This document shows, in pieces, positions 2,101 through 63,473 of a stretch of DNA of 64,000 nt; the stretch's first letter is position 1; every line of letters starts with the position of its first letter. A program made the position numbers and the translations under genes. A model generated the notes under the pieces. That model saw nothing but the letters and a program-made list of their open reading frames with translations. It ran no database searches and had not been told where the DNA came from. The stretch is taken from contig OY740814.1 of the NCBI GenBank assembly GCA_963514005.1, positions 18,538,001 to 18,602,000 on the forward strand, given 5' to 3'. The DNA comes from Raja brachyura. Taxonomy: Eukaryota.

Positions 2101-4599
2101 AAGACCTTACAAGGAGTGCAGTTCTTTTGATAAAAGCTGCACAATGTGGATAGGCAGAGACGAGTGTATAATCCTATTTGTACTGGATGATGCTGTTGAT
2201 AGATAGCTTTTGTGGGTGTAGAGAGAATCTACTACGCTACACATTGTCGTGTTGCTTTTGTATCTATTTAAGCATTAGGGCTCTGTTTCTAGCACTTTGT
2301 TTTAAACACAAGGAAGATACTGCCAATGTTGGAGTAACTCAGTGGGTCAGGCAGCATCTCTGGAGAACATGGACAGACAACACTTTGGGTCGGGACCCTT
2401 TAGACTGATCTTATGCTTCAGATTACAAGCTTTAAAAATAATTAAAGGTGTATTGATTTTTTAAAAATCTAATAGTCTGGAAAAGTCTGTTAGTTCAACA
2501 GCTCGGGTGATCTGAGGTTGCTGAATTGTCAAAATGTAACTATAATTAAAAGTTGCACAAAAAAGTCACATCTGCCATAATTTTTCCATAAGGCATTAGG
2601 GGAGCTATATTTGCTTTTATCTGAAGATACCAGATAGTGCTCATAAAAATAGAAACCGGGCCCCTGTTATTTTAAAGGGGGCACATGAAACAAAAGATGG
2701 TGAGCCAGATGCCGATCCATCTGGCTTTCCAGACAATTGGATATTGAATGATTGCCGTTTTACTATCTTGCAGTACAGTTTTGAACATTTATCGTTTGGG
2801 GAAAGTCAAAACATTCTGTTTCTGAACCCTATCCAGCATTGGCAAAAAGACAATGCACAAGTACAAGGACTTGGGGGAAGGGCGGCACCCTGTCAAGTTG
2901 TCTTGGATCCTAGACAAGGAATGAGTGTCCATAAGGCACAACAGATTGACTGCAGAACTTTTGTCCAACCTGGCGTTGGAACTTCGCAAAAAGAGTGGAC
3001 TGCTGAGAGCATGTGATATGGAAGAATTTAGAAAAAGAGTAACCTTTTTCTAATTATCTTTACATAGTGGAAGTTAGAACATTGCATGCATTAATTACTT
3101 GTATATTAGTATGCTTTCAATCTTGGATTCCAGTTTCTAGACGAGAAGGGTAAAATGAGCCTAGCTGCTCAATTTTGTGCTCAACTGCAGTCAAATGATT
3201 CCAGCTGGGCATGAAACCTGCAGTCTTCCAAGGTTTATGGAAATTTGCAGTGCAGTTTCCTGAAAAAGATCTTTAAAATTGCAACATTGTCTGACTATGT
3301 TTGGATCAGTGTCTAAGATAAACAGTTTGGATAGGGTCTAAGCAATCTAGTGCGTCCTAACCATACTGAAGAATCTTTAAGAATATAGTGTATGAGGCAG
3401 GAAGTTGCAACAAGAATGTTCACTCATAAACATTTACAAATTTGGCTCGGAAAACAAAATAGAAGTATAGAATGATTTTTTTTTTAAAGGAACCAAGGGG
3501 CATAATTTTTTAATTTGTTACTTCTAAAGGTTCAACAATAAAATTGGAAGGAATTAGGCAATCACAATTGCAAGTATTATTGTTACTCTGCCATTAGAGG
3601 GCTTCTGACACTAGAATGAATAAACTTAAGTGGCCTGGCAAATCTATTTCTAAACTTTCACCTACCCATTTGTGTGGTATGCTGGGTGGTATTTACATGT
3701 TATTTTGGAGCAGGGAATTTTTGGATGCATTTTTATGCCATTATCCAAACTGCACATAAATAATGGTAAGGACTTCATTGCTACTGCAAAATCTGTCCAA
3801 TATTTAATTTGTTTACAGTAATTGAATTGTTCCAGAACTTGGAAATGTTATTTTATCTTTGTAATTCAACAAGAAATGTGAGATGATGTGGGAGGGAAAT
3901 TCACATACCTTTCTTTCACATAATACTTTACGATGAAATGCTGGGTAAACCCAAATTTGGACAAAAGTGTGCATATCAAAAGTACAGCATTTTGAAATTA
4001 TTATTGAGAATGGATGATTGTGCTGTGCTGCTTTCCAATTTTTGACCCACCGAGCATTTAGTTTTATAATTGTTCCTGATTACCCTATAATTTTCCGGCC
4101 ATGAGCTCCTTACCAGTTTCCATTTTCTTTTATGATTCCAGTTATCCGCAGGTTTGCCTGAAGTTACCAGTTACGGGTGGAATAAAATTGATTTGTGTTG
4201 TCCACCTTGTGTTTCCTTGGAAATCCAAAATAATTGCTTCCAAGCCCTCAATTGTAACAGTAGGAGGATGATTAGCTTATAGATTTCAAACTAATTCTAA
4301 GACCAGTGCACACTGCTGCAATCATCCCCACCTCACACCCTGTGGCCTTGCAATTTTTCCCTTTCAGGTTGTTCTATAGCTGTCTTTATCAAAGTGATTT
4401 GATAGTGACCTGACAGTGCATTCCAAATGCTAACAACTCAGTTTTGAAAGAAAATGTACTTGTCTCACCGTCAGTTATTTCACCATTCGCCTTCGTTCTC
4501 GATCAAGGTCCCCAATCTTGATCTGTTTATAAGTGGAAACAGTTACTGTATCAGATGCCTTTGCAACTTCCTTGTTTGGGGAGAACAAACCTATCCAGT

Positions 4600-5900
4600 T
4601 AACCAAAGACCTTCTGTTCCCTTCATAGTTCACCATGCCTCCAAATTCTGTCTGCAAATATGAAAATCATATTCTGTGCAACTAAATACAAATTATTTAT
4701 ACAGGTGGCTCCTGCAATACATCTGGAAATTTGTCCCTACAGAATTCACATATCAGTACCCAAAAATTTGAGATGCGGAATAAAATGCTCATGGAATTTA
4801 TGTAGGAAGAAGTAAAGGATCAGCACAATTTGTTTTTCAACTTTTGTTGATACACGAGGAAGTAATGTGATCACTTTACAGAAAAGTTGCAGTGTGTCTT
4901 GATTTATAGGAATGCCACCCCCCTGTAAAATAGGGATTTTCTGTATATATTTCAAAAATTGGAGGCCTTGTGTTTAAATTATTAGCACAAAAATCCTGTC
5001 TGGTTTCTCCACTGTCCTCAGTTCAAGAACAATCTTTCACTCCATTACACCTCTCTTTAGATTCCCTTTTTGTTTACTGCCGGTCTTTTTTTCATACTTG
5101 GTGTCTCGTCCTGTCAGTCATCTTGTTTTAATTCCTATCAGAACTTCCTGCAATCAGCTTCGTTCTCACTAAGGTTAGTAACCTGATGCATTTCATATGC
5201 CTTTTCTTCCTGCCCTTTCCTATTGTAAATTGCTCTCTTGTTTTCATCGTCCATTGAGCTCTGGCATTAATTTCCATATCCTACTTCTTTATGGGTATGT
5301 ACCAAAACTGTAGCTGAAGTGTTTCCAGCTACAAAACCTTCCATTGTTCAGTTATGTCTGACAATTTGACTCTACCCATGACAGATCATTTCACATCCCA
5401 TTGTAAAGGACCCTTTTTAGATGAACTGTTTTTACTTTGGAATTGTCTGTCAGAATCCATTATCATTTTACTTTGGACAATAATGGATGCTTCCAATGTG
5501 AAGGGAATTGTGTCAATTTAGGCACACTGCGTGTTGCCTTTTCCTCCAAATCTGTTCTTTTGATCTTTCCCTCATGGGTTGCCCAGTCAGTGTTCCTCTG
5601 GGACCCAACAGAGGTATTGTTGGCGTCTTGCAATATTGGCACAACATTAAATTTCTTCACCGTGTGCTTATTTTCTTTGCCAATAGACCAGATGAATGGA
5701 CAATGCAGCAAACATATTAACATCAGCGTAAAATTAATGCAATTTTTTTGTATTTTCTGTAATTTACATCATCTCAGAATATGCTGGAATGACACAGCCA
5801 GTCAGCATTTGAAAAAATAAAATTGGTCAGTTATTGGGCCTTTTTAAATCCCAGCAAGTTCACTAGCAGTTTTAACCTAAGCATATCAAAATACTAAAAT
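4600..5900 (-). mobile_element. Old, highly degraded CR1-like LINE
   Basis: Faint remnants (TKLGG.VN.E-like and FF.EVTSRV-like segments); boundaries approximate. Confidence 0.45.
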
Positions 5901-6537
5901 GGGATAGTTTAAGGTTGACAAGTGATGTTAGTTGTTTGAGAGAATCCACATGATAAATTGCTCAATCGGTTGAGAAATTGTGGTAGGACTCGCATAGCAA
6001 CCAACCCAAGTATTGCCAGTTTTTCTGTTATCATTTTAATGAAAAACTCTGCATCTTTTAAATATTGTGTTTAATAATTTCAAAAGCAGTCTTCCCATTT
6101 TCTCTCCCTGCAACAGCTGCTTATCATTGTCCTGCCATTCCTAATTACATCCCCCAAATCCACCTTTTTGTACCATGTCCCATCATTACCATCCCTGCTG
6201 TTTGGCTTTCTGCATCATCCCTTTTATCATTTAATCTTCTCTGTTTTCGATCACTGAACCCTGCCGTACCATGCTGTCTTCTAACTTTTCTAGTTCCCGT
6301 CCAAAATGTTAATTCCCTCCTCTCCCATGTGCCCACTTGGAGTAATAGTTCTAATATTCTGAACAGATTCACTTCCGATTCCTAGGTTTGTTCAATTGGA
6401 CTATCACTTTTTGTCTATTCCAAGTATTTCTGAATTATATAACTATCGGTGGCCTCGTGCTGTTCGATGCAAGTGTGGGTGAATTCCTGTGCCCTGTCAT
6501 CCTTTTTCATATAAGTTCTTTGCAAGATCTCTATGTA

Positions 6538-6753
6538 GAAACAAGGAACTGCAGATGCTGGTTTACCAAGGAAATGCACAAGATGCTGGATGTATCTCAG
6601 TGGGTCAGGCAGCATCACTGGAGAACATGCAATAGTTGACCTTTCAGGTCGGGACCCTTCCTCAGACTGAAAATGTGCCAGGACCCAAAACGTCACCAAT
6701 CCATGTTCACCAGCGATGCTGCCTTACCAACGGAGTTACCAAAGCATTTTGTC
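6538..6753. mobile_element. PLE-derived short repeat, inverted pair with degenerate hammerhead motif
   Basis: GGAACTGCAGATGCTGG...GGCAGCATC...GGGACCCTTCCTCAGAC followed by its reverse-complement copy. Confidence 0.75.
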
Positions 6754-7404
6754 TTTCCTAATCCAACTCTAATTCCATCCACCATGCCTGTCACTTTAGC
6801 CTGCAGGTTTTTCTCCATGATATCTATTCAACTTCTTGGAGACCACAACTCAATTTACATGCATCACATCTACAGTCAGTGGGTTCCAGATGCTTCTCCT
6901 CTAGTTCCTCATAATTCTATTTTCCCCATTACTTCCTACTGGCACCTGTACTTTGATGCCTCCAAAACGAACAGCTGCAAAGTCCCGAATTGTGCATGCT
7001 TTAAACTGTTTTCCCAACCTGCTCTTTCATTTATTTGTGTATTCGTATTACATTCCTTTATATTCTGTACTCTATTGCCTCTTATGCATATTTCAAATTT
7101 CTCTGCTTTAAACCTTGTCCATTACACCAGCCTTTTTGTCCAGCTACAATCAAAATATCCTCTTGAACAATACTCTGCACTCCGTATCTTTCCCTTTGCT
7201 CTGCCTACTGTACGGAAGTTTGACTTTCATATTTCCACCTCTCTGGGAACAGAACTCCTTGCCAACAGCACTAGCGAACTTGCCAACAGGTTCGCTCAGA
7301 TTTGTTTCTCTCCTTCTGTCCCTTACCCCTCCCTTCATCTGTGGCCCGGCAATGTATTCTGTCGCGTGCATATGAACCTCTAGTTCTTTTGCCGTTGACA
7401 ATCC

Positions 7405-8869: not shown

Positions 8870-10470
8870 TCTGACACTACCTTCTGTAGATTTGGGGGCC
8901 AAACACTTCAATGGTTGGAATCCTACCTCGCACAAGAGAAATTAGTGTAGTCGTTGAAAGCCAAACACAGCAACCCAAGAACATCACTACAGAAGTACCT
9001 CAGAAATATCCTAGTTTTGTACTGTTTCATTAGTGACCTTCTTTCCATAATGACCCATTAAGCACAAGCGGTGGGAAGGTTCACTAAACAATGTTTAGTG
9101 GCATCTGCGCCACTCGAGCAAGTGAAACAATCCATGCTCGAGTACAACAAGACCTAGACAACATTCGGGCATGGACTGACAATTGGCAAATAGCATTCAC
9201 ACCAAAACGTGACAGAAAAATGTACACCTTTCACAAAAAGTGAGTCTGTGGAATTCTCTGCCTCGGAGGGCGGTGGAGGCCGGTTCTCCGGATACTTTCA
9301 AGAGAGAGCTAGATAGGGCTCTTAAAGATGGCGGAGTCAGGGTATATGGGGAGAAGGCAGGAACGGGTTACTGATTGGGGATGATCAGCCATGATCACAT
9401 TGAATGGCGGTGCTGGCTCGAAGGGCCGAATGGCCTACTGCACCTATTGTCTATTGTCTAAAAGTCTAATTCACAAGTTTTGACATTGATTGACATTACC
9501 ATCGCTGAGTCCACCACCATCAACATCTTAAAAATCTCACCAGCAACTTAGCTGGACCAGCAACAAACACTGTGGTTACAAAAACAGATCAGAAATTGTA
9601 TATCTAGAGGCGGGTGAGTCGCATAATAACACTCAAACACTTCCACAGTTTAAGGGCACAAATCAGGAGTGTGATGTAATGTACTTTGATAGTCTGGATG
9701 AGGTGTAGCTCTAGCAACATTCATATTCATCACAATCCAGGTCAAATCATCATGATTGATTGCTACCCTATCTGGCACTTTATTCATTCCCTATATCCCA
9801 GTGGCTGCAGCAACAGCATTTGTAAAATGCTCTGCCCAATGTAGTCTGACAACTCTAGTCCCAAGAAAGACAAGGGTAGCACCACCACCTGGAGTTTGCA
9901 CATCATGTTGGCTTAGAAGGAAGAGAGACACAAAATGCTGGAGTAACTCAGCCAGTCTGGTAGCATATCCGGAGAAAAGGAATCGATGACGTTTTGGGTG
10001 CTGACGTGCTTAATCCAACATTTTGTGTCTATCTCCAGAGTTGAAATATTTGTGTTGAGGTAGAAACCTGGTTTCTGGCATTGTAGGGTGGTGTGTCTAC
10101 CAGCTCCACTGTGGTGCTGTCCTATTAACCTGCACAGAGCCACGATGGAAGGAAATACTCAGAGCCAAGTCCCTCCAGGATATGTCACATATTCCTTTCC
10201 TCCAGAGAGGCTGCCTGACTCACTGTGTTACTCCAGCATTTTGTGGCTATCTTCGGCATAAACCGGCATCTGCAGTTCCTTCCTATACGTATTAGCTTAG
10301 AAGGATATCGCTCTTTCATTCATTGTTTCATCTAAATCCCAGGTCTCCATCTCCCAACAACAATTATGAGTACCTTCATGAGAAGGATTGTGGTAACGTG
10401 AAGACAACACCACAAAGGATGGATTAATAAAATGCTCACCTTCCCAGCAACATCTATATCCTGAAAAATA
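8870..10470 (+). mobile_element. CR1-like LINE 3' portion with nested younger insertions
   Basis: GQTLQWLESYLAQ..VVV..QP..IT..VPQ RT motif; tail ...AATAAAATGCTCACCTTCCCAGCAAC; interrupted by a CR1 tail (9228-9460) and PLE repeats (9915-10040, 10180-10290). Confidence 0.7.
9228..9460 (+). mobile_element. Young CR1 LINE 3' tail
   Basis: GAATTCTCTGCCTC...GGCTCGAAGGGCCGAATGGCCTAC...(CTATTGT)n; CpG-rich. Confidence 0.9.
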
Positions 10471-14196: not shown

Positions 14197-15257
14197 GTGT
14201 TAGCACAAAAACTTAAATGAGTTGTTCTTAGTACTGGGGTGAAAATAACTTAAATTCTTTGCTGCTGTGCCAATGTATAATTTGCCAATTTGTCTCCTTT
14301 GTATTGATCGGGAACTTTTTCTCACTGGTGACTTTCATCTGTCATGTGCTCACTGCACAACTGTCTGGGTATTGTAAGTATTTTTGGTTTGGGAGATGCT
14401 GGCAAAGTAGCCTTGGTCAGCTCAATGGCGCAGCAGTAACTTTGCTACCTTACAAAGCCAGAACTGGGTTCGATCCTAACTACAGGTGCTGTCTGTATGG
14501 TATTTGTATGTTCTGCCTGTGATTGCTGAGGGGGGGGGGGGGGCGGGGCGCGAGGCTGGGGGGGCAGCATGGACTCGACATGTGTGGTGGGGGTGGGAAC
14601 AGCATAGGAGGAAAGTTCTGGAATTTTTGTAAAACAGCAATCAATCTTTGAGTCAATGAATAGATTCGACTTGACCCCTCCCCGTCACACACTTCCCCCC
14701 CCCCGTCACAAACTCTGAAGGGAACCTGATTATGGTGTGGAAGGGAAAAATGTGAGTAAGAATGTGGAACATTTTCAGCGCTACCGCGAGCGTTTTGACA
14801 AAGATTAAAAACAATACGTACACACATTGCTTACAAGATGCACACATGCATACAAGGTGAGATTTTTATAAGTATATATAGATAACCTATATAGATTTGG
14901 AACCAAGTTTGGGAGATAATTGAGAAGGATAGAGGTGAATTGTGCAGAACTGCATTGCTCTGGTTCACAAGTTCTAAAACCCATTTACCACGCGGTAGGT
15001 GCAGGGGAGCATGAACTTTGCAAAGATTGAAATACAACAAGTGGAACGTTCCTGGGATTGTCAATCCCCTTCAACTACAAATTCATGTTTTGCTGATTTA
15101 TTTCACAATCCAACATGTGAGCCTTTGAATGGGAACAATTGAGTTTAAAAAAAACCTAAGATCACCATATGCTGTATTTATCAAAACCCATAAAATGCCC
15201 AGGTTTAAAAACAACACACTGACTGTGAACCTGACCTTTTTTTTAAATCTATTTAAG

Positions 15258-15342
15258 CTTCGGATAATGGCCAGCGATTTCAGGAGACTTGTTTTGCGTT
15301 CGCACTGACACCACAACAAGTTCAACAGATTAGTAATTCAAT
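15258..15342 (+). CDS. PIAS1: PIAS1 exon (human exon 3 equivalent), PINIT domain
   Basis: AG acceptor 15256-57, GTAAGT donor; encodes (A)SDNGQRFQETCFAFALTPQQVQQISNS(M), matching recalled human ASDNSQRFRETCFAFALTPQQVQQISSSM; 85 bp. Confidence 0.96.
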
Positions 15343-17254
15343 GTAAGTAATCATTCTTCTTCTTACATAGTTTTGATTGTTGGAATGGAAAAACTTGAGT
15401 CACTGAAGTAAATATTGGGAACTAAGGTGATAGACCAAACATTCAAAATATCAGTTTTAATATCTTGACTGCTATTATTCTAGGACTACATTTGGCCATG
15501 GTCTCCTTGGAATTTGGGGGGGGGGGGAATGCATTTACGTTCCAGTTGAATGTAATTTTGACTAAGAATAAATTTAAGTGGCAAGTTATTTTAGACTGTT
15601 TTAATTCAACTATTTAAGTTTTAAATTGTCAGTTTATGAATGATTTGCCATGTTTTAAATATCCCCAGACGACAAAAGTTTGTATGCACTTAGTTAAGTT
15701 AGGATCCTCTCATTGTAGGAATAGGAGAACCCAGTTAGCTCCTCCTGCCTGTTGCTCTAATTAGTGAGGATAATTTCTATCTTATATTTAAAATGCACCA
15801 TCTACCTAACATCAACATTGCTTGCAAGAGTTCCCAAATTTCTACCGTCCTCTGCACATAATGGTTTCCCAACTCCTGAGAGGTTTGGTTGCAGTTTTTT
15901 GATGCATTGTCGACTGAGAATAGTTGCAGCAAGAATCGTTTCTTTTCATTTGCCCTTCATAAGTCTCTTGTAGCTTGAAAGCTCTAATTAACTTGCTCTA
16001 AACTTTCTAAATGTTAGGTTACACAACCATAGTTTGTGTGATCACTTCTCTTGATTTAAACCCTGGGAACGTTATCATTTTGGAAACATTATACTACATC
16101 GATTCCCAAGTTGCGATGCTCAGAATTATTTTTCTCTTCAACTGTAGTCTAACAAAAGCTTTGTATGGATGTGTCGCATATCATTTCTTGGAGTCCACCA
16201 GCTTACATTTAAAAAGGCTCGATTTCCAATTAAATTTTTTTTTTTTACACCCATTTGACATTTTAATGATCCATGTGCATAGAACCCAAAGTCTCCTTGA
16301 AACGACATCACTTCCAGATTTTCACAATTTAATATACTTTCAAAGTCCAAAAATATGAGCACTCTAATAAAAAATTGAAATGCATTCACTGCCCTTTTTG
16401 TCTTTCACAAACTAATATCTCAGAATTTAATATTTCAATCCATGTTGCTTGTAACCACCCATATTATATCATTGGCAAACTTTGAAACTTGTATTCATCA
16501 TATCTCTGCTATACCGTTCTCCTCCTTGTGTTCTCATTATCAATCCCCCTCTCACTTTTAATTGCTGGTTTGTTTTTTATGTGTGTAATTTCTGTGTGTA
16601 ATAACCCTCATCTTGCAAGGAAAAAAAAACATTCATAACTTCATTTTTAATTCTCCAGTTTGTCAGCATCTTGGTCGGCAGGTTATTTAGCCACAGTTTA
16701 CCCATTTGCCATTTCAGTCTCTTTGTAAAAATATTTTTTTGGGTGAATTATTGCTGGAATTCAGCCAAGGGCTACATATAAACATCTGCCATGGAGTCCT
16801 GAGCCATAGTAGCAAATGAGGCTTGACTGACCCTCAGTACATAACAGTAGTAGTACTTTGTCTGCTTTTGATTTCTAAGTGAAAGCCAAAACAATCTTTA
16901 TGTTGCAAAAATACTGATGTTTTTGATTTCATGGATCTGAAATCACTTCTGGAGTCAAACAATAGTCAAGTGATATATTGCCTTGGATTCAGTTGCTAGC
17001 TTTGAGTCCTAAATGTTTGCGTTTCTCCCATAACACACTCGGACGGCTAGCTATGTTAAGTTTTGTGCACTAACCAAGATGTTACGACATACTTGTATCA
17101 CACTCCAACCATCTCTGCTAATTATAGTTTCTGTAATGCAAGAAAAGTTGAGAAGTTTTCCAACACAGAATTCAAAGTGAGTGCAGTTTTTTAATCTGTT
17201 GAAAACTATTTGATTTAATCCCAATTTTGAAATTTATAGATTAATACAGATTAT

Positions 17255-17600
17255 GGTGGGATAGTGGTTAAATTACTAGACTAGCGTCTAAAGTTCTGGA
17301 TTATTCATCCAGGGTCAGGAGTTCAAATTCTCGGCGGCACATGTGGATTTTAAATTTAAGTAATTAAATCTGGAATTTAAAATAAACTATAATCAAGAAA
17401 GTAGCAGATTTGTTTTTTTAATTATTCTGATTAAAGTCCTTCAAATAAAGAAATTGGCCGTCCTTGCCACCCATGTGTGGCCTCCACATGACTGCAGTGT
17501 CACCAATGCGGTTGACAAATGCCTTCATTCAGGAGTAAACAGTGATGAATAATAAATACTGGCATTGCCAGCAACAGCCACATTTGGTGAACAAATAGAC
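17255..17600 (+). mobile_element. Old tRNA-derived SINE (second family)
   Basis: A-box-like GGTGGGATAGTGG, B-box GAGTTCAAATTC, tail AATAAATACTGGCATTGCCAGC resembling the LINE tail at about 10430; related copies at about 18035-18540 and 44330-44620. Confidence 0.65.
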
Positions 17601-17749
17601 TGTTATTGTCATCTGTTTAATTGCTCAGTTTAAAAATAGTTTGGCTTACAAAAAGTCTGTGCTTTTAGGATCTAGGTTATGTAAATTGTTACTATCAATT
17701 TAAGTTATAATGTAAAGTTGTAAGTGAAATATGTTTCATTCTTACTCAG

Positions 17750-17797
17750 GGACATATCGGGGACCAAGTGTGACTTCACAGTTCAGGTTCAGTTAAG
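17750..17797 (+). CDS. PIAS1: PIAS1 exon 4 equivalent
   Basis: cag|G...AG|gtaatg; encodes (M)DISGTKCDFTVQVQL(R); 48 bp; phase matches the neighbouring exons. Confidence 0.96.
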
Positions 17798-18739
17798 GTA
17801 ATGCATATTATTAGTTTCACTTGCTATTCTGTTTGCTCTCTCTCCTTCCCTGTTTTGGCTTTCCCTCTTTTTTTATGTGACGTGCATAAAATGTTTAAGT
17901 AATTTGATAAATGAAATTGGGGGAAAAAACAGCCATGTTAGAAAAATACTTTTTGATTGTTTTCTGTAAGCTGTTTATTTAAAATACTCAACGCAACAGT
18001 TTTGGTTCAAAGCATATCATTAGTCCACGGGCTTGGTGGCATTGTAAAATTACTGGATGGAGTAAATGGTAGGCCTTGATTGAGCCAAGAGTTCAAACCC
18101 AGGTCTGCAACTGGGGAAGTTATTCATTTAGTTAAATCTGTATACAACTTGGTTGGTACAAGAGTTTGCAGATGCTGGCATCTTGAGCCCAAAACAACTA
18201 ATAAACTGCTAGAGGAGTAGGAATCACAGAGGAGGAATAGTAGTGAAAGAGTCACAGAACTCCCATTGGAGTGAGGAGACCTTTTTCAAAGTGTGCAGAC
18301 TGAGGAGATTTGGAAACACTAAGGGGGAGTGCCGTGACAGGGTCTCACAAAACCTCTGTTGGAGAGAAGGAGAACTTCTTCCAAGTGGACATACTTTGAA
18401 GAAATTAGCAGTGTGTTTTTTGCCCTTGGTTTCTGTCGTAGTGGCATGGAATTACTGGATAATTGTAACAATCCATCTAGTTCCTTGATCACTTCAGGAA
18501 GATAATCTACAATCTTTACCTGGCTTGCTTATGACAACTGAAATTGGAGAATATATTAATGGTGTCATTGTACAAGTTTGTACTTAAATATTATTTAATC
18601 TTACCTATTTAACATTATCCATGTGGAGAATACATTAATAATGCAAACTGTATCCATTGTTGGTTAAAGAATGGATTTTCAAAATTATGGATTACTGGAG
18701 ATAATTTGATAGTTATAACATTGGTTACATTTTTTACAG

Positions 18740-18830
18740 GTTTTGTTTATCAGAAACCAGTTGTCCACAGGAAGATCATTTCCCCCCAAATCTATGTGCG
18801 AAAGTTAATGGAAAAACTTGTAATCTTCCA
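18740..18830 (+). CDS. PIAS1: PIAS1 exon 5 equivalent
   Basis: tttttacag|G...CCA|gtaagt; encodes (R)FCLSETSCPQEDHFPPNLCAKVNGKTCNLP; 91 bp. Confidence 0.97.
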
Positions 18831-46984: not shown

Positions 46985-47111
46985 GTCTGAAGAAGGGTTT
47001 CGGCCCGAACCGTTGCCTATTTCCTTCGCTCCATAGATACTGCTGCACCCGCTGAGTTTCTCCAGCACTTTTGCCTACCTTCGATTTTCCAGCATCTGCA
47101 GTTCCTTCTTA
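46985..47111 (+). mobile_element. PLE hammerhead repeat inserted into a minus-strand HER1 tail (about 46925-47400)
   Basis: GTCTGAAGAAGGGTTTCGGCCCGAACCGTTGCC...CAGCATCTGCAGTTCCTTC. Confidence 0.8.
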
Positions 47112-47609
47112 AACGGAAATGAGTCCCTCAGCCCATCTTATATGTGCCAACCAAGTTGCTTACTAGTCTAGTGTTATTTGTCTGCTTTTGACCCATATCC
47201 CTCAGAACCGTTTCTATCAGTATGCCCGTTCAAGCATATTTATCCATTGTAAAACGATTGTACCCATCTTTACTACTTCCTCTGGCAGTTCATCCCACAT
47301 ACCCACCACCCTCTGTGTTGGGATGAAGGTTTTGCCTCGAGTCCCCTTAACTCTCCCTCTCTCCACCCCCTGCACCCCCACCTTCACCTTAAATCTATAT
47401 GGTCTTCACCACTGTACAGGAACCTTCTCTGCTGGAACTACCACCCTATTGGTGTTCTTTCAGAGGCACCACTGGGTCCTTTGACACCATGATCAAGTGA
47501 CCTCTCATACACTGACTGGATAGTTGTGTTTATGGTCAGACTAACTTTCAAGTTTATATAGTTGAACAGAGGTCACTAATAGACTACAGAAAGCCAAAGT
47601 GCTGATATT

Positions 47610-48520
47610 AGTATGGTATTAGCTGGTATTATATAAATGACTTGGATATAAATGTAAATGAACTGGTGAGTAAATTTGCTGACGACATCAAAATTGGACG
47701 AGTTGCAGTCAGTGAGGAAGTCTGTCAGAAGATACAGTGGGATATAGATCAGCTGCAGAAGTGGACAGAGAAGCGGTAAATGGAGTTTAACCCAAACAAG
47801 GGCAAGGTAGCGCACTTTGAGGTTGAATGTAAGGGGAAAGTACATAGTCAATGGCAAGACCCTTAACACCCTTGATGTGCAGAGGGATCTTGGAGTTCCA
47901 AGTTCATAACTCACAGCACAAGGAGATAGCTGATATAGAAGGCAATTGTTATGTTTGCCTTCATTGCTAGGGGCATTGAAATTAAGAGTAAGGAAGTTAT
48001 GATGCAGTCTATAGGACTTTGGATTGGCTGCATTTGGAATATTGCATGCAGTCCTGGTATCCCATTAGATGTGGAGATTTGGAGAGGCTGTAGAGGTGCT
48101 TTATCAGAATGCTGCTTGGATTAGATGGTTTCATCTGCAGTTTTGGATTGTTTTCTCTGGAGATTGAGGCTAGACGATAGAATTATATAAAGTTATGAGG
48201 CCAGAACCCTTTTCCCCATGATGGAAATGTCCAACACTGGAGGATATAGCTACAAGGTGAGAGGGGGAAAGTTTAATAGAGATGTGCAGAGCAAGTTTTT
48301 TGGGGGGTTTTTTTACATCGTGGAACGCATTGCCTGGGGTAGTGGTGGAGGCAGACATGAGAGTGGTATTTAAGAGGCTTTTAGCTAGGCACTTGGAAGT
48401 GCAGGGAATAGTGGGATTTGGATTGTGTACATGCAGATGAGATCAGTTTAACATGGAATCATATTCGCCATAAACATTGTGGGTTAATGGTCCCGTTCCT
48501 GTACTGTTCAGTGTTTGTTC
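47610..48520 (+). mobile_element. HER1/CR1 LINE 3' about 900 bp
   Basis: VSKFADDIKIG..QWDIDQLQKW..MEFNPNK, then the tail. Confidence 0.88.
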
Positions 48521-48595
48521 TTTAATCTATTTCATCAGTCTTGTTTGTTGTCTTTTGTATAAATTGACCTTGGTTTTCGGCTTTCTTTCATGTAG

Positions 48596-48735
48596 GGTTT
48601 TAAATCTGCACCATCAGACATCACCAGTCACGAGAACTCCCAGCATACCTACTCTGGACACAAACTTTATTTCTGCTCCTTTTCAAGACTACCGTCATTC
48701 TTACCATTTACCGACGCTGCCGTATGAATTACAAG
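48596..48735 (+). CDS. PIAS1: PIAS1 exon 12 equivalent
   Basis: tgtag|G...CAA G|gtaagc; encodes (G)VLNLHHQTSPVTRTPSIPTLDTNFISAPFQDYRHSYHLPTLPYELQ; 140 bp. Confidence 0.95.
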
Positions 48736-49099
48736 GTAAGCTGCTTGTGGCAAGGTGTGATTGCTGTTGAACAAATGAACACCATTTAATGAAAAGTCAA
48801 TAATGGAATGAATGTCTGCTCAGAACGTGCTCCATTTTATTGACGTCTCTGTGCAACTTCAATTTTGTTTTTCATTGAAGCCAACAAAGGAGCAAAATCA
48901 TTTTTGTTTGCACGTTGGTGTGATTCTTTGAAATATTTTGTTTGAAGTCATAAAATGGAGGTGTCCGATTTCTCCCTCCCCTAAAGCCATTAGCTTGGCG
49001 CAATGATTGGTCATATGGACATTCATCTATGACTATGGCCTGCACCCGAAAAATGACCCAATCCCTTTCCCAGATGCTGTATTGTTAACCAACACCATA

Positions 49100-49380
49100 T
49101 TTAGTTTAGTTTAGAGATACAGCACGGAAACGGGCCCTTCAACCCACCAAGCCCGCACCAATCAGTGATCCCCGGACACCAACGCCATCCTATAATTTTA
49201 CAATTATATCGCCAATTAACCTCAAACCTGTACGTCTCTGGAGTGTGGGAGGAAACTGGAGTTTCCTGGAGAAAACCCATGCAGGTCATGAGGAGAAGGT
49301 GCAAACTCTACAGATAAGCAACCATAGTCAGGTCTCTGGCGCTGTAAGGTAGCCACTCTATCACTGTGCAGGCCATGCCA
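49100..49380 (-). mobile_element. HE1-like V-SINE
   Basis: (TAAAC)n tail, V-domain and head. Confidence 0.9.
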
Positions 49381-49407
49381 ACAATATATTGTGTATAGTA
49401 TTACTGA

Positions 49408-49910
49408 TACATAGAACAGTACAGCACAAGAGCAGGCCGTTCGGCCCAGTAATGTCTGCTGAACATGATGCATCTCTTATCTACCTACACATAACCCATA
49501 TCCCTCTATTCCCTGCATATCCATAGTCCTATCCAAAAGTCTCTTAAATACCCAAACAACGTATCTGCCTCGACCACACTCCTAGCAGCGCAACCAGGTA
49601 CTCCACACCCTCTATAAAAATAAAAAAAAATGTGCCCCACACATCTTTAAACTTAGTTCCTCTCACCTTAAAGATATGACCTCCAGTATATATATTTTCC
49701 ATCCTGGGAAAAAGGTTCTGATTGTCTACCCTATCTATGCCTCTCGTAATGGTATATACCTCTATCAGGTCTCCCTGCAAACTGGCATACCAGAGAAAAC
49801 AGTCATTATGGTCAGCATACAAAGACTTTGCATCCTTCCTGTATTGGGGCAACCAGAACCTCACGCAATACTCCAAATGTGGCCTAGCCAAAGTCCTATC
49901 AATCTGCATC
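49408..49910 (-). mobile_element. HER1/CR1 LINE 3' end
   Basis: RTLARPHLEYCVRFWLPQYRKD..LQGDLIEVY..RGIDRVD..LFP. Confidence 0.9.
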
Positions 49911-50067
49911 GAGTTACATAAATGCTAAACCTTGTAATTTTCAAACTACTTAGTAAATAACTATTGTATATTTTCCAATATGGTTTTGTTCTCTCACTTC
50001 AATTTAAATTGTCAACCTGTTCCAAAATGTTGTTGCCAAAAACCATCTCGTAATCTCTGATCCCTAA

Positions 50068-50200
50068 CTAGTCTGAAGAAGGGTCTCGACCTGAAACATC
50101 ACCCATTCCTTCTCTCCAGAGATGCTGCCTGTCCCACTGAGTTTACTCCTGCTTTTTGTGTCTTTCTTCAGTTTAAACCAGCAACTGCCGTTCCTTCCCA
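50068..50200 (+). mobile_element. PLE hammerhead repeat
   Basis: GT-CTGAAGA-AGGGTCTCGACCT-GAAA-CATC-ACC followed by the family 3' segment. Confidence 0.82.
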
Positions 50201-50411
50201 CTCATAACCCCAGTAACAAGAGCACAGTAAACATGTGGCTGTGTTTTGTGGGTTGCTCTCTTGCAATTGGACCTAAACCTCATAGTTACTTGATCACGTT
50301 CTCTGATTAATGGTGATGGCGTTTGATTACCAATGAAACCTGGAGTCCACATTTATTCGAGTTTGTGCACATTTGACTTGTTTTTTCTAATATTTTCCTT
50401 TCTTTGAACAG

Positions 50412-50449
50412 GTTTAGATCTATTTCCCTTCCTGCAAGGGGACAATCAG
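50412..50449 (+). CDS. PIAS1: PIAS1 exon 13 equivalent (38-bp exon)
   Basis: Polypyrimidine tract, then aacag|GT...CAG|gtatgt; encodes (G)LDLFPFLQGDNQ versus recalled human GLDFFPFLSGDNQ. Confidence 0.94.
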
Positions 50450-50719
50450 GTATGTAACATGCCAAGAAGCACTTTTGCCATTGAAACCTTATTTTAATCA
50501 TAAATGTATCAATGATTTCTCAGAGGCTTCAGCAGATTTTGATTTGTTTAAGTTTATCTTAGACAATTTGTTAATGATATATTTTATAAGGACATCTCAG
50601 TATAAATCTAGGCACTTCCATATGCAGCCCAACATTTCAAAACAAGAGTTAGATTCAAATAATTTTGCACTATGTTTGAAGTAAGTAGAAACAAATGTTG
50701 ATTGGGAGACCTGACTAAC

Positions 50720-50846
50720 CTGGAGAACATGGATAGGTGGCGTTTTGGTTCGGGGGACTGATGAAGGGTCGTGGCCTGAAATGTCACCTATCCATGTTCT
50801 ACAGATGCTGCCTGACCTGCTGAGTTACTCCTGCATTTTGTGTCTC
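50720..50846. mobile_element. Inverted PLE repeat pair with a CTGATGA hammerhead motif
   Basis: GAACATGGATAGGTG / CACCTATCCATGTTC arms around CTGATGAAGGGTCGTGGCCTGAAATGTC. Confidence 0.78.
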
Positions 50847-50962
50847 TTTCTGAGAAGATGGTGTTGGGCTGGCTCCTTAAAGCAGCAGCAGCTCTTCTGG
50901 GGGAGGTTCTCCCCTAATGGAGAGAGTTGATTATGTAGACCCTCTGGTAGAGAATGAAAAAT

Positions 50963-51218
50963 GAGTTTAGTTTAGAGATACAGCGTGGAAACGGGCCATT
51001 CTGTCCACGGTGACCGGTGATTACTCGTTCTATCCGATACAAAAGGGACAATTCACAGAAGCCAATTAACCTACAAACTTGCGCGTCTTTGGAATGTGGG
51101 AGGAAACTGGACCCATGCGAACAGGGGGGATCGTACAAACTTTGTACAGACCATAGTCAGGATCGAATCTGGGTCTCTGGCGCTGTTAGGCTGCAACTCC
51201 ATTGCTGCGCCTCCGTGC
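50963..51218 (-). mobile_element. HE1-like V-SINE
   Basis: Tail, V-domain and head on the minus strand. Confidence 0.88.
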
Positions 51219-51545
51219 TTGGGCTTGGGAATTACTTTTGGCGTATGGTTGTTGAGTGATGGGAATGCATTTTGTAGATTGTACCACATATGGATGGTAG
51301 AAAGGCCTTGAAGTGTCAGGAATCTGGTTACTGGATACCTAACTGCCAACCTGCACTTGTAGCCACAGTATGAAGCTATCGAACCCTAGGTTATAGGTAA
51401 TGATAATGTCATTGAACATTGAGGTTAGATGACAGTTTTTGGAGATGGTTATTTCTGGCTCTTTTATGTCACAGTTATTATTTGCCTCTTCTCAAAGCAT
51501 GCCTACATATTGCCTGGGGTCATGCATGCAGGCATAGATGGGGTT

Positions 51546-51893
51546 TTTTTAGTTGAGTTCATTGTCACGTCTACTGAGGTATAGTGAAAAACGTTTTAGT
51601 TGTGTGTTATCCAGTCAGTGTAAAGACTATACATGGTTACAGTCAAGATGTCCACAGGGTACTGCCACAGGATAAAGATAATCATGTTTAGTACAAGATA
51701 AAGTCCAATTAAAGATAGTCCGAGGGTCTCCAATGAGGTAGATGGTAGGTCAGGACCGCTTTCTTGTTGTTTCTGGGATGGTTCAGTTGCCTGGTAACAG
51801 CTGGGACAAACTGTCCCTGCATCTGGAGGTGTGTGTTTTCACACTTCAGTACCTCTTGAATGATGGGGAGGGAAGAAGAGGGAATGACCGGGG
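51546..51893 (-). mobile_element. Rex1/Babar-type LINE 3' end
   Basis: The reverse complement has RDSF.PAV.RQLN-like coding and the tail TTTCACTATACCTCAGTAGACGTGACAATGAAC. Confidence 0.7.
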
Positions 51894-52703
51894 CTTAATC
51901 GCTGAGGATTTGTGTATAGAATCTAATGTTGTCTCATGACCAATTTTGAATTGATGTATAGAGGGTTTATTGATTAGGGACTGATGATGGTCAGCCCTGT
52001 GAAGCATCTCTGAGAAACTCCTTCAGCAGTCTCCAGGGCTGTAATGGTTGGTCTCCAATGGCCACCATAACCATCTTCCTTTTCTTTCACTGATCAGATC
52101 CCCTTCAAAACCTCTCTGTGGGTCACTCAGGTCACTGTGGGTCACTGTCCTAAATCTGGCTGGCATGGACACTCAATTGAAACCGGATCTCCCTTGGTGT
52201 CTGTGGCTCAGTACATAGTGTACTGAAAGAACCCGTTATAGACTTGGGTGGTACACCAGCCCAAGTCAAACCAGTGCTGATTCACAGTAATGATGTCCAA
52301 ATATTGAATTCCGGGGTCAGCCTACATCGTTAAAAGCCACCTCCAGTGATATTAAGAAAATGATGATAGCCGACATCACTTATCCTGAGAGGTCAATGAG
52401 GTTTGAAGAACACTTGTAAATCCAATCGTAAACAGTTGCAGAGCAAAATTGAAAGCCAATCTGCAACAGATGCAAGTTTCATTTTAAGTTAAATAACTGG
52501 TTCATTAATCTTTTGGATGCGTTCAAGATATTTAATCAGCTTCATTTAACTAAGCTGCCTTTTTATGCAGATGTCAAAATTATGTCAATATTTTGAATAG
52601 TTTTGCATGTTAATTAATTGTGGCGAGTATGATGACCGAGTGAATTAATCAACCGATAGTCTGGCGTTAATGTTCCACCCTTGTGTTCTTGCCTCCGCTG
52701 CAG

Positions 52704-53009
52704 CATTACAGCACCTCCCTCCTTGCCGCCGCAGCCGCAGCAGCGAGCGCTTCAGAGGATCAGGACCTCATACACTCCTCGCTCAATCGATTCTTTCCGT
52801 ACAGCTCTTCGCAAATGTTCCTGGAACAACCAAACTCAGCGCCTGCCAACACGCTGGCGGTGACCAACGGCAGCAGCAGCGGGAGCAACAGCAGCCTCGT
52901 CTCCTCCAGCAGCTTGCGGGAAAATCTCGGACATCCCGGGGCGACCCGGAGCAGTGTGGAAAATGGCACCATTTTTGGCACCATACCAGATGTTATTTCA
53001 TTGGACTGA
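52704..53009 (+). CDS. PIAS1: PIAS1 last coding exon (exon 14 equivalent), ends at TGA
   Basis: ctgcag|CAT; encodes HYSTSLLAAAAAAASASEDQDL...TNGSSSGSNSSLVSS...IFGTIPDVISLD*, the PIAS1-type C-terminus. Confidence 0.97.
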   Translation, partial: HYSTSLLAAAAAAASASEDQDLIHSSLNRFFPYSSSQMFLEQPNSAPANTLAVTNGSSSGSNSSLVSSSSLRENLGHPGATRSSVENGTIFGTIPDVISLD

Positions 53010-55860
53010 CATTTGAAATAATGGCTAACTTTTTTTTGTGGTGGGTCTGGGATGGAGAAATAAAGAAGGAAAAAGTCTGGTTTGTTTCACCTTTTAAAAT
53101 AAATTTAGAAGTGTAGAGACCCTTTTTTAAATAAACAAAAAAAAATGTAAAAAAAGACACCATGTACAGAGAACAAAATACTATATTTTCAGTTAACTTT
53201 TGTATATAAATTCAAGACTGTCTGTCTTTTAAGGTTATTTCAGTTTACTTTGTGAAAGCAGAGTTTTTACGATGTATTTGTCTGTTTCGTGATATTCCTT
53301 TTTGTATTGTTCGATGGCATTACTTCCACAGTTGACATTATTTGACTTAGACATTTTTCGTTGTACTTCACTGTAGAATATTTCTTTTGGAAAGAACTGA
53401 AATGTCAATGATTGACAGCGATATTTCCCATTTTTTGTGCAAATAATTTTATTATTCTTTTAAGTTATGTAAAGTATCTTGACTGTTCCTCATATCATTC
53501 CCTCTGCGTTTGCAGGAAGTAGCTTTGGGGAATGCTCAGTACCGTACAGTTTTTCACCTTTGGGGAGGGTGGTGGTGAAGTTTGTGGACGACCCCTTCAC
53601 AAATTCCACATCTTCCGTTTTATAAAGTAGCATTTTTCAAGCATTAAGGAATTGTAATAAGGGAGAAAATGTATCCTTTTGTTGAACTTCTTATTTTCCT
53701 GTTTCCCTGAAAAGCTCTAACTGTAGAATGCATCCAGTTTGTATACTTGTTATTTTTCTCTTTTTAAAAAAAAAAAAAAAAAACCTCATTTCATACACGT
53801 GCACTGTTTGCTCACTGGGCATTGTCATATTACAGCCAGCTTGCTAAGAAAATACCAGATTGGGTGTGGAATTTATCCCTGTATTTCAAGTGCCCTGTTT
53901 GGCAAAGCACCAGTTTCCACTGCATGCTCCCAGTTGAAACAGGGATGCCAGAATTTGGGTACTTTTGGTGTACTGATACATCGCCCCAACTAACCACACT
54001 GCCACTCATGTGACCCTCAGCTTTGTTTTCATTCACGTTTCTTTAGTTGTCTGTTGCTTGTTCAGTGCATTATGATCTTTGCCAAGCGTGGAAGCAACCA
54101 ACCAAATTGGGGGTTTTCCCCCCCCCCCCTCAATGAATGGTCCACAATCTCTGTTTGGAGTGTGACTGTCTCTCAGATCTTTGAATCAAACAGAATTCTC
54201 AAACAAATAGTTGGTGTGTGCACAGTTTAGTGTACTAAAGAAAGTAAATATTTTTCACAGCCTTCACCTGTTTTGCTGTTATATATTGGTCCACAAGTTA
54301 AATTCCAAGTGCACTGGGAGGTTTTATGCAGTTCTTCCACTAGTTTGAAAGTAATGTTTGCAAGATGGTGAAAACTACCCAGTGCTAATTTGACCCATGA
54401 ACTTCGAAAATATCGCATTCTGAATTTTCTGTCTGCCCTATCAGCTGATCTCAACCTGGCGTTGTGGGCAGTTATAATTGGACAGAGCATCTCATGAAGT
54501 CTTCTCTCGTGTCCATCTTCCATGTTTCAGATGCTGACATCGCTGTCATCGTCCGTCTTGAAAAGGACGCAAGCTTCCGGCGACAATCAATGGCAGCCAT
54601 CACTTGTCGCAATAGATGATGGTGGTAGCAGAATTAGCTCGGGATACTTCCAGTTTCCAGCCCCGCGACATGGACGCTTCTGCTATGGGTCCATCTCATT
54701 GAAGTGAACGGGACACTATTGTTGGCGTTGCTCGTCCTGATGAAAGTCCATTGGCTTGTATGTGAAGTGGACAAGTCAGCATTGCGTTCATTTACAACAT
54801 CTTACTTCCACTCACCCCTATATCCAACAAACTGTAGCCTATTCAAAAGAAGATCTAGGAAAGACTGGTGGCCGCTGGAAGGTGATGAGCTTTGTGCAAT
54901 CATGTAACAGCAAGTGGGAGAGCAAGGATGGTATAGAACAAGCTATAACCAAAATGAGCAAACGTTGGGTAATGAAAGAGTTCTAGAAAACCTTGCAGAG
55001 AACAGCAGCAATTGGCCTATCTCAGCTGTTTTTTTGCAAAATCTTTAGATGATAAAATTGCAAATCTTCAGGTTTTCAGCATCTGCTCCCTTGTCCTCAG
55101 ACTACTTGTTTTACAACTCATTGAAAATTATAGTTTGGGGGGGGGGGGGGGGGGGGGAGGAATTGACTGGTTTATTGAAAGTAGGTCACTAAATGGCTTG
55201 GGGCTCACAGGCTGTTTAGCCATTGGGGAGATGTTTCATGCTTTCATCGGGATTTTGTCCACCGTATTTTCCATGTTTTGTGAACGTTCTCAAATAGGGT
55301 TGAATTGAGCATTCATTGGAAATCAATACCTGGATTTGAGTGGTGCTTGTGTCAATGGCAAAGTTATCTATGTCTGAACACAGCTGGATCTTTCACACTA
55401 TTGGTTGCATTTTGACAAGTGAAGAGAATTTTAAAGAGTAAGCCAGCTTGTACACATTGCTCACCTACTGTTTGGTATAGTAGGTTGTTCTAGAATTTGC
55501 AGTATTGAGAGTCTATTTCATTTGCACAAAGTGTCATTGTAAACCAGATTCTCCAAGCATGGAAACTCCCCTCTTCTGCAAATTTGTAAATTCTGTTCAT
55601 CACTTCTTTGAGGGTGTCAAAGATAATTCTGATACTTTTACTGCCTTAAATCTTTCAGAGTGCTGGCTTCTGCGACCGCATGCCAAACCAGAGAAATGGC
55701 TTTTTAAAAAATAATTGAGTATAGTAGACCAGTGTCAGTTTGTATAAAGTACCACGTGAAAATATTTATTTCATGCATTGGAAAAGAATTGTTTACTTAA
55801 TGAATGTTACCTGTTAATGTAGAGATCTTTTAGATGTAATAAAGCAGCAGAAAGTTCCCA
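53010..55860 (+). other. PIAS1: Probable PIAS1 3' UTR (end approximate)
   Basis: Follows the stop codon; U-rich; no recognisable TEs for about 2.85 kb; AATAAA at 53059, 53098, 53130 and 55838. Confidence 0.6.
55838..55843 (+). terminator. Candidate distal polyadenylation signal AATAAA
   Basis: TGTA motifs upstream, a U/GU-rich stretch downstream, and a position near the end of the TE-free block. Confidence 0.5.
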
Positions 55861-61186: not shown

Positions 61187-61425
61187 TAGAAGCAAGGAAC
61201 TGCAGATGCCGGTTTACAAAAAAAGACACAAAGTGCTGGAGTAACTCAGCGGCTCAGGCAACAACTCTGGAGAACAAGGATGGATGACATTTTGGATCGG
61301 GATCCTCCTTCAGGTACTGAAACTACCTATCCATATTCTCCAAAGATGCTGCCTGACCCACTAAGTTATTCCAACAGATAGACACAAAGTGCTGGAGCAA
61401 TTGAGTGGTTCAGGCAGCATCTCCG
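61187..61425. mobile_element. Cluster of PLE pseudo-LTR repeats in alternating orientation
   Basis: GGAACTGCAGATGCCGG..GACACAAAGTGCTGGAG twice, plus an inverted GATGCTGCCTGACCC segment. Confidence 0.75.
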
Positions 61426-61870: not shown

Positions 61871-62374
61871 TAACTCTGTTTCTCATGTGACAGATGTTGC
61901 CCGGCCTGCTGAGTGTTTCGATCATTCTCAGTTCTAATCCAAACTTGGGTTCAATTACGTTCAGGAGGCTTCATTGCATGGCCCTCTCGCGCACCCTCTC
62001 CATTGAATTCCTGCCACAACCCTCATGCTGCTAATTATAAAGCAAACTGAGCCACAATCAACCTGCTGGAGGAAGTGAGCGGGTCCAAGCATTGAGCTTG
62101 GGGAGGGGAAAGCAACAGTCGATGCTTCAGGTCGAGAACCAATACTGCAAGGGTTTGACCTGAAACATTGACTGTTCCTCCCCACAGATGATGCTCGGCT
62201 CACTGAGTTCCTCCAGCAGATTGTCAGTTCCTTCTTTAACACTCCTCCAGCAGATTGTTGGCCGCTGCAGATTTAAACACCTGTAATCTCTTGTCTGTAA
62301 AAAGCCAACAGACCTATCCAACTGGTTAGTTAAGCTGTCAAAAAAATTCTGTCCAATTTACCGTATCATTACGA

Positions 62375-63280
62375 GCTTAACCCGAGCAAGTGTGAGGTGT
62401 CACACTTTGGGCAGTTGAATGGAGAGGGTGTATTGTTAATGGCAAGTCCGTTAACACTTGATGTGTAGAGGGATCTGCAGTCTAAGTTCATAGCTCACTG
62501 AAGGTGGCAGCATCAGTAGATAGTGTGGATATCAAAGGAATATGGGAAGTTTGCCTTCATTGCTAGGGGGCATTGAATACGTCAGGAAGTCACGGTGCCA
62601 CTTTGGTGTCACAGAGTCAGGACTTTGGTTCGATCACATTTGGAATATTGCATGCAGTTCTGGTCACCCCATTACAGGAAAGATGTGGAGACTTTGGAGA
62701 TGAAGTGGTTTTTACGAGAAGGCTGCCTGGATTATGGGTTTCAGATACAGGGAGAAGTTGTATAGACTTGGACTTTTTTTCTGGATCGTCGGAGCTTGGT
62801 GGGAGACTTGATAGACGTATATAAAATCATGAAAAGCATAAATACAGTGAACAGCCTCATTCCCAGTGGAAATGTCCAATACTAGAGGGCATTGTATGCG
62901 GGGGGGGGGGGGGGGGGGTGGGGGTGGGCCGTGAGGGGAAGAACAATGGAGGACCCGCGTGCTTTGTAATGTTGTCAGCATTGTAGGTGGCCACTATTTG
63001 GATTAATTGAGCATGGAAGCACAGAATCTCACTCTGCCTAAGACAATGAAGTAAGGTGAGAGGGGGAAAGTTTAATAGATTTTTTTGTACACACTGTGGT
63101 GGGGGCCTGGAACGCATTGCCAGGGATGGAGGCAGATACGATACGGGTGTTTGAAGGGATTTTGGGTAGACACATGAAAGTTCAAGGAACTGAGGGATAA
63201 GGATCAGGCAGATGAGATCAGTTTAATTTGGCCTTGTGTTTGCAGATGGGCCCGTTCCTGCACTGTACTGTTCTATGTTC
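62375..63280 (+). mobile_element. HER1/CR1 LINE 3' end with an internal insertion (about 62897-63053)
   Basis: [28 protein letters not shown] and tail CTGTACTGTTCTATGTTCTA. Confidence 0.85.
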
Positions 63281-63473
63281 TAACTCTGGGTCAGGCAGCA
63301 TCTGCTGAGGGGCATGGATAGATGACTTTTCAGGTCTTCAGATGCCCTTCAGTGTCAGAGTCTGAAGAAGGGCCCTGATCCGGAATGTCACCAGTCCATT
63401 CCCTGCACACACGCTGCCTGACCCATTGAGTTTCTGCAGCATTTTCATTTTTGCTCAAGATTCCACCATCTTG

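Follow-up and report, generated by a model that had tools for sequence, protein, structure and literature searches.

The introns of PIAS1 in the skate Raja brachyura raise the question of whether a short dispersed repeat that resembles a self-cleaving ribozyme acts as one, or whether it records how a transposon was inserted. A reading made from the sequence alone had listed 17 positions of such a repeat, described as minimal hammerheads derived from Penelope-like elements (PLEs), in a 64,000-nucleotide stretch of contig OY740814.1 (positions 18,538,001 to 18,602,000, assembly GCA_963514005.1; hereafter the window). We consider it likely that these repeats are 5'-truncated PLE terminal repeats, probably copied from uncut element RNA, and that their hammerheads are probably inactive relics in the PIAS1 introns.

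The repeat family and its link to Penelope-like elements

A profile built from eight copies in the window matched all 17 positions and detected 32 repeat arms at E<=0.1, compared with 0 in each of 10 shuffles, which confirms the family. The arms sum to 2,510 bases (3.9% of the window). The 32-base motif as first written has no exact copy in the window, and six arms come within three mismatches of it (0 expected). The copies had been described as single units of 90–130 bases; 9 of the 17 sites turned out to be head-to-head inverted pairs of 140–370 bases. Pattern scans for the repeat gave no match in viral contigs and none in metagenome contigs; 29 metagenome loci with PLE-like reverse transcriptase (RT), taken from a protein-based scan, yielded one descriptor match and no convincing copy of the skate repeat. 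In one metagenome contig (L013, minus strand, position 1806) a motif resembling a minimal hammerhead, its helix II 7 bp long, lies close to a PLE RT match.

The PLE origin is supported by the position of the arms, which follow GIY-YIG ends on both strands (21378–21647 on the plus strand, 36499–36430 on the minus strand). The first of these regions comprises the C-terminal 89 codons of a GIY-YIG endonuclease. It is joined to a hammerhead arm on its 5' side and is followed by an untranslated region (UTR) of about 170 bases, a second arm and a tail; a direct repeat thus surrounds the end of the open reading frame (ORF) at 21341–21914. The order ORF end, UTR, hammerhead recurs on the minus strand at 36499–35551, where it is interrupted by another element. 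The 21378–21647 fragment is 64% identical over 89 amino acids to the C-terminus of a ray RT-endonuclease protein, and Pfam GIY-YIG matched it only at E=0.14. The best matches of the PLE fragment were in Leucoraja (72–75%), then in Hypanus and Mobula. The 64–75% identity to skate and ray RT-GIY-YIG proteins agrees with the proposed origin, and the Leucoraja matches indicate that the proposed cartilaginous-fish host is probably a skate. The closest full homologs (P0123–P0125) have a C-terminal GIY-YIG domain and a CX3-4CXXC linker, and a CX2-5CXXC linker is given as a mark of Neptune and Nematis PLEs in the part of PMC8557442 that treats them. No match to a PLE RT was found in the window; RT-like sequence with YIDD occurs in the homologs only.

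Two further observations concern these fragments. At 21372–21378 the GIY-YIG region is joined to the first hammerhead five bases beyond its predicted cut, apparently at a short microhomology; this junction is apparently an internal deletion or a template switch, and as a result two hammerheads are no more than 475 bases apart. The GIY-YIG end of this PLE family is also included in several gene models of skates and rays (DCC, NMUR1 and RTP3-like).

The claim of high abundance was upheld. On 21250–22000, 187,771, 207,551 and 211,397 contigs were found in three probable DNA runs from three organisms, i.e. about 190,000–210,000 contigs per run on one 751-base remnant, while nearby single-copy DNA had a depth of 8.25 in the first of these runs; summed contig depth is not a copy number. 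Scaling the arm count of the window to a genome of about 2 Gb would give as many as 10^6 arms, and our estimate per skate genome is 10^5–10^6. With one arm per 2 kb in the window, the family is far denser than the hammerhead motifs counted in coelacanth (~4,000) and Xenopus (~9,000) in the relevant section of PMC4209133.

The sequence-only reading had left a choice between a unit the size of a short interspersed element (SINE) and a 5'-truncated PLE. The 5'-truncated ends fit better, because a GIY-YIG ORF end adjoins the arms and because of the inverted pairs, the one-sided tails and the target-site duplications. No tRNA-, 5S- or 7SL-type SINE head was matched by Rfam on the arms (a box A/B search was not run). 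It is improbable that the short unit is an independent, non-autonomous element, either a SINE or a retrozyme, that spreads via hammerhead-cut and possibly circular RNA. Tail and motif do exceed the ORF end in summed depth, and contigs in which 21913 is joined back to 21817, head to tail, number 14, 11 and 17 in the three probable DNA runs. Moreover, a 2026 preprint (bioRxiv 10.64898/2026.07.22.740005) derives non-LTR retrozymes from PLE ends and places tandem retrozymes in one chondrichthyan, so that these share with the skate family a type I hammerhead and a kinship with PLE ends. However, retrozymes consist of units repeated head to tail, each with its own hammerhead, whereas the skate copies are single or head-to-head; no head-to-tail array of the short unit was found in the window, its ends do not coincide with the cut site, and tandem joints are rare in a set of some 190,000 contigs. 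Ordinary PLE truncation yields variable 5' ends, inverted pairs and ORF-linked copies such as those seen here.

Insertion signatures and the shared 5' boundary

Target-site duplications of 11–17 bases were found at 6 of the 15 loci tested, and four of the six enclose a whole pair; in the control, 1 of 200 random pairs reaches 11 bases. Both arms of these enclosed pairs therefore entered in one event. A long tail extension of 30–40 bases is present on exactly one arm in five of the nine pairs and on both in none. Two 3' ends were located, at 21913 and 47112, roughly 85 and 117 bases downstream of the point where helix II begins, and 21913 is the best-supported loose end in the contigs. Arms that start upstream of the predicted cut site number 22 of 28 under strict alignment and 26 of 28 under lax alignment.

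These features recall two studied systems. Inverted 5'-truncated copies and one-sided tails are presented as PLE hallmarks in the section of PMC8557442 on element structure, and the endonuclease-bearing (EN+) PLEs of Neptune/Nematis type described there share with the skate family the C-terminal GIY-YIG, an inverted 5'-truncated copy and a one-sided tail of 30–40 bases; the skate family differs in its clear 11–17-base duplications and in that its RT and linker are known from homologs alone. The second system is PAc, a Poseidon element of the lizard Anolis carolinensis. According to the portion of PMC11167929 on its biochemistry, the anole PLE cuts and extends both strands, uses mostly uncut RNA as template, and has two internal RT starts that bound the tail, one of them 111–118 bases past helix II. 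PAc and the skate family have in common that copies span the cut site and that a tail of about 32 bases lies between two 3' ends, the far one about 117 bases past helix II. PAc belongs to another PLE clade and has an ATG at helix II, with none there in the skate copies seen.

Since the arms mostly span the cut site, as in the anole PLE, we infer that insertion proceeded from uncut RNA primed at both target ends. In the proposed mechanism, the element protein would cut both target strands with a stagger of 11–17 bases, and reverse transcription would be primed from both target ends at two internal positions in the RNA, roughly 85 and 117 bases beyond the beginning of helix II. The RT would pass the uncut hammerhead, usually stopping at or right before it, and the two cDNAs would be joined head to head. 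The inserted copies would then decay without selection for ribozyme activity. Read this way, the pairs, the duplications, the two 3' ends and the shared 5' boundary would record PLE insertion, a mechanism studied in vitro in one lizard element.

The nine inverted pairs (e.g. 23023–23225 and 38612–38800) are also predicted to form long double-stranded hairpins, a possible RNA-editing substrate; eight pairs that were folded gave hairpins of -54 to -151 kcal/mol.

The shared 5' boundary lies just before C3, with 11 of 28 arms starting between -4 and +2 of this base, and in each of the four runs the loose ends that precede 21817 rank with the best supported (1,447–1,549 contigs in the three probable DNA runs). 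Tentatively, and with odds somewhat below even, this boundary is the start of the element RNA, the short arms being run-off copies of its first 90–130 bases. The boundary sequence fits an initiator-like consensus, YYANWYY. On the other hand, four arms carry sequence upstream of the boundary, subfamilies diverge there, which makes part of the pile-up a loss of homology, and in D. virilis the start is 46 bases plus an intron upstream. The boundary may instead be a 3' splice site: 9 of the 15 arms that span the core have YAG directly before the motif, the upstream letters are pyrimidine-rich, and position 21643 is G in about 75% of the depth, so that the ORF stop overlaps a donor-like site. In D. 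virilis, too, helix I is where the intron ends. Against this, no spliced junction is present among the 15 joints listed of 758. It may also have arisen where two cDNAs annealed through the palindromic stretch that precedes C3, as the pair at 6665, centred on this palindrome, would suggest.

The donor-like site (21640–21647) overlaps the PLE stop codon in most copies. An acceptor-like YAG (21817–21819) stands before the hammerhead. Judged from these sites, sense copies could give host genes cryptic splice sites.

The hammerhead motif, its decay and the odds of cleavage

The core was scored in each arm as C3–A9, G12–A14, A15.1, U16.1 and H17, and four arms without all or part of it were not counted as intact. 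All 12 core bases are kept in 9 of 27 aligned arms, and the majority base is the expected one at every core column. Six of the nine are sense to PIAS1, in line with the several core-intact sense copies claimed previously; only two of them (21345 and 42256) are clean, with a well-paired helix II, at least two helix I pairs and ACGU, and the arm at 23398 is marginal, with two G-U pairs. As described from the sequence, an extra A follows A9, helix II has 4 bp and helix III is reduced to ACGU. The extra base is A in 14 of 15 arms, G10.1 is likewise kept in 14 of 15, and C11.1 in 11 of 15, the remainder having T at a CpG. The ACGU palindrome has decayed at its CpG to AUGU or ACAU in many arms. Helix I has 2 bp (3 at 21345) with a compensatory change in one copy, and its predicted pairing is near 0.

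The PLE hammerheads of Fugu, Acropora, Schistosoma and Culex have the core and CGUC in common and differ in their helices (supplement of PMC4209133). The skate motif has their core, extra base, G10.1–C11.1 and CGUC, again with different helices, so that conservation of the core over its flanks, a check named in the sequence-only reading, holds across families from several phyla. The minimal hammerhead ribozymes that PMC4209133 describes, in its part on the pseudo-long terminal repeats (pLTRs) of metazoan PLEs, resemble the skate motif in CUGANGA plus an extra base, G10.1–C11.1, GAAA and a palindromic helix III remnant, and also in their location at PLE ends, in mostly single truncated copies and in close opposite-strand pairs. 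The skate family differs in a helix I of 2 bp, as in D. virilis and Culex (3–5 in most), in a 4-bp helix II and in G+C-richer flanks; no cartilaginous fish appears in the alignment portion of PMC4209133 that was compared. By every sequence feature tested, a firm helix I excepted, the repeat belongs to the PLE minimal-hammerhead class, and the match to the published consensus favors the assignment as a minimal type I hammerhead. The hammerhead is in this respect an ordinary finding, hammerheads of such form being the rule at PLE ends. In searches of the openly readable literature, no description of this skate family was found. An abundant skate family is material for asking if in vivo cutting by PLE hammerheads takes place at all, a question raised in portions of PMC8557442 and PMC11167929.

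It is hardly credible that the likeness to a hammerhead is a chance feature of an ordinary repeat. The Rfam check proposed with the sequence-only reading gave no hammerhead family match at E<=10 in the window, fold z-scores were unremarkable and covariation was not significant. The missing Rfam match would be expected, because the motif has no helix III. The motif sits at the location of PLE hammerheads and agrees with their published consensus at every base, and a minimal-hammerhead descriptor found 3 matches versus 0.01 per shuffle, though it missed 21345 owing to its loop-length limit.

Two other candidates were dropped. A conserved tail hairpin was unsupported, no two-sided change being seen, and a CUGAUGA near 54750 on the plus strand, without GAAA and helix I, was dismissed by eye as a further copy.

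In the 15 core-spanning arms, non-CpG mismatches are fewer in the core than in the tail (9/150 vs 110/744, p=0.003). This difference was not retained as a sign of selection on the copies: the arms were chosen for spanning the core, and without subfamily-variable columns it is gone (9/150 in the core vs 48/589 in the invariant tail, p=0.49). Subfamily-variable columns make up 0 of 10 in the core vs 11 of 53 in the tail (p=0.19), and within the window N7 and loop II have 22/75 mismatches vs 9/150 in the core. G12 is A in eight arms, at a CpG. Between subfamilies, then, the core is fixed, and within copies it decays at the same pace as the invariant tail. Inside the gene there is no depletion of sense arms (16 sense vs 8 antisense, p=0.15), and there is therefore no sign of selection against them.

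The sequence-only reading had hinted at a risk to the pre-mRNA from the intact sense copies; this hint proved weak, the two clean ones being 21 kb apart and sense copies not being depleted. For all six core-intact sense arms the predicted pairing probability of helix I in local context is 0.00, and in the consensus fold of the alignment U4–A6 pair with the cut site, which is an inactive form. Relative to the best fold, a double hammerhead of 21345 with 21820 would cost a predicted 26.6 kcal/mol, and the homodimers of 21345 and of 42256 would cost 21 and 16 (no control). For a metazoan minimal hammerhead, the activity section of PMC4209133 gives no activity as a monomer and low activity as a dimer in one case. 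Cleavage of PIAS1 pre-mRNA by the intronic copies is, on the decay, the lack of depletion and these predictions, unlikely. The more specific proposal, in which intronic copies would cut as double hammerheads (21345/21820 as a tandem in cis, intact copies in trans, or with a PLE protein), is quite improbable in our view. Both members of the tandem are sense with a 12/12 core, 475 bases apart, and minimal PLE hammerheads cut weakly as dimers (PMC4209133) or, in the anole, with protein; yet besides the fold energies, helix II of 21820 has a mismatch, and no read ends lie at the cut site in the anole RNA-seq described in PMC11167929. If intact stubs in sense introns did cut host pre-mRNAs, a transposon relic would be cleaving introns throughout the genome of a vertebrate.

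Several points weigh against reading the copies as inactive relics inserted from uncut PLE RNA. For the element itself, neither an RT nor a full element lies in the window; its clade and its mechanism are therefore argued from homologs and from the lizard's Poseidon element, a member of another clade. As to insertion, no clear duplication was found at 9 of the 15 loci tested and the tail motif was detected on neither arm in four of the nine pairs; the 5' limits of arms shift with alignment settings, and at most one arm (61317, ambiguous) starts exactly at the cut. As to the ribozyme, covariation in the window alignment was not above that of shuffles (68/500). The anole hammerhead cut only with its protein, according to the part of PMC11167929 on cleavage, and the tandem 21345/21820 could pair as a double hammerhead, with a mixed helix III (A-U, C-G, G-U, U-A) and with 3 bp in one helix I and 2 bp in the other. 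Finally, the folding model has no tertiary core and no active control and cannot show inactivity; the fold energies therefore lower the odds of cleavage short of excluding it.

The PIAS1 gene, the copies and other elements in the window

Eleven PIAS1 coding exons were placed by their match to Scyliorhinus PIAS1 (Table 1). The exons of amino acids 1–159 lie outside the window, so that the three sites before 15257 are intronic by inference. Contigs from two possible RNA runs end at 55819 and 55857 while DNA contigs continue, a weak hint; the 3' end of PIAS1 is probably near 55860. The placement of copies "throughout PIAS1" thus holds for 14 of the 17 sites (three by inference), whereas 61187, 62060 and 63285 are more than 5 kb beyond the likely poly(A) site. 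At 17751–17852 (+), shortly before the true exon at 18738, an extra match to PIAS1 amino acids 189–222 (59% identical) may be a chance match or a decayed exon duplicate.

Table 1. Coordinates of repeat copies, PLE fragments and PIAS1 parts in the window (a dot marks entries with arms on both strands)
Feature	Position	Strand	Remarks
Single decayed arm	2324..2410	-	
Head-to-head pair	6532..6757	.	Centred on self-complementary stretch right before C3; long tail on minus arm
Head-to-head pair with spacer	9918..10283	.	14-base duplication; long tail on plus arm; decayed cores
PIAS1 coding exons, amino acids 160–652	15257..53009	+	11 exons; stop at 53009
PLE remnant	21341..21914	+	Hammerhead, GIY-YIG C-terminus 21378–21647, ~170-base UTR, second hammerhead, short tail
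First hammerhead of 21341 remnant	C3 21345	+	Predicted cut after 21372; core intact; 3-bp helix I
Second hammerhead of 21341 remnant	C3 21820	+	Core intact; mismatch in helix II
Head-to-head pair	23023..23225	.	Within 15–17-base target-site duplication; minus arm 12/12 core with broken helices; plus arm G12 lost
Single sense arm	23374..23486	+	24 upstream bases; intact core; weak helix II; 11–13-base target-site duplication
Head-to-head pair	33244..33432	.	11-base duplication; long tail on plus arm; decayed cores
PLE remnant	35551..36499	-	GIY-YIG last codons (36499–36430), UTR interrupted by inverted-repeat element at 35808–36316, hammerhead (C3 35638, intact core, antisense to PIAS1), tail
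Further GIY-YIG fragment	37383..37570	-	No hammerhead arm found after fragment
Head-to-head pair	38612..38800	.	Within 13-base duplication; only minus arm has long tail; A9->G in plus arm
Single sense arm	42253..42360	+	C3 42256, core intact, predicted cut after 42283; first helix I pair A-U in place of U-A
Tail-only arm, absent from earlier list	42600..42680	+	
Single arm, second subfamily	46985..47112	+	Loop UUCG; A15.1 changed; long tail; 11-base duplication
Single sense arm	50044..50196	+	~26 upstream bases; long tail; 12/12 core; helix III palindrome lost
Head-to-head pair	50712..50851	.	Plus arm 12/12 core, first helix I pair broken
Probable PIAS1 3' UTR	53010..55860	+	AATAAA at 55838
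Three arms (-, +, -)	61187..61424	.	Downstream of PIAS1; long tail on first; decayed cores
Old head-to-head pair	62048..62236	.	Downstream of PIAS1
Head-to-head pair	63282..63475	.	Downstream of PIAS1; plus arm A13 changed

Weaker additional tail-only arms were detected at 11755, 30930, 49037 and 61890. Elements with long terminal inverted repeats occupy 35808–36316 (129 bases), 58785–59048 (116) and 61591–61871 (93), and are probably similar to miniature inverted-repeat transposable elements (MITE-like). A second dispersed SINE-like family (families D10, D13, D14, D17, D19 and D20) is present at 11860–12079, 30522–30659, 49103–49308, 50964–51111, 60631–60775 and 63501–63757. Decayed reading frames resembling those of long interspersed elements (LINE-like), all on the minus strand, were found at 20516–21238, 1485–1898, 42269–42595, 47576–48064 and 49544–49924, and the PLE remnant at 21341 appears to be inserted into such a frame.

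The window also contains a ribozyme like those of hepatitis delta virus (HDV) and CPEB3, at 54500–54693 on the minus strand (Rfam RF00622, 31.1 bits for a gathering score of 35, E=1.8e-6). A repeat some 190 bases long, antisense to the probable PIAS1 3' UTR, carries this ribozyme at its 5' end. Its P2, P3, L3 and catalytic C look intact, and P1 has one mismatch and is restored by the majority letters. The stretch drew 3,644 and 4,061 contigs in two probable DNA runs, with the depth nearly all on the repeat; its 5' junction is common to three other organisms, and loose ends pile up at 54689–54694, around the predicted cut.

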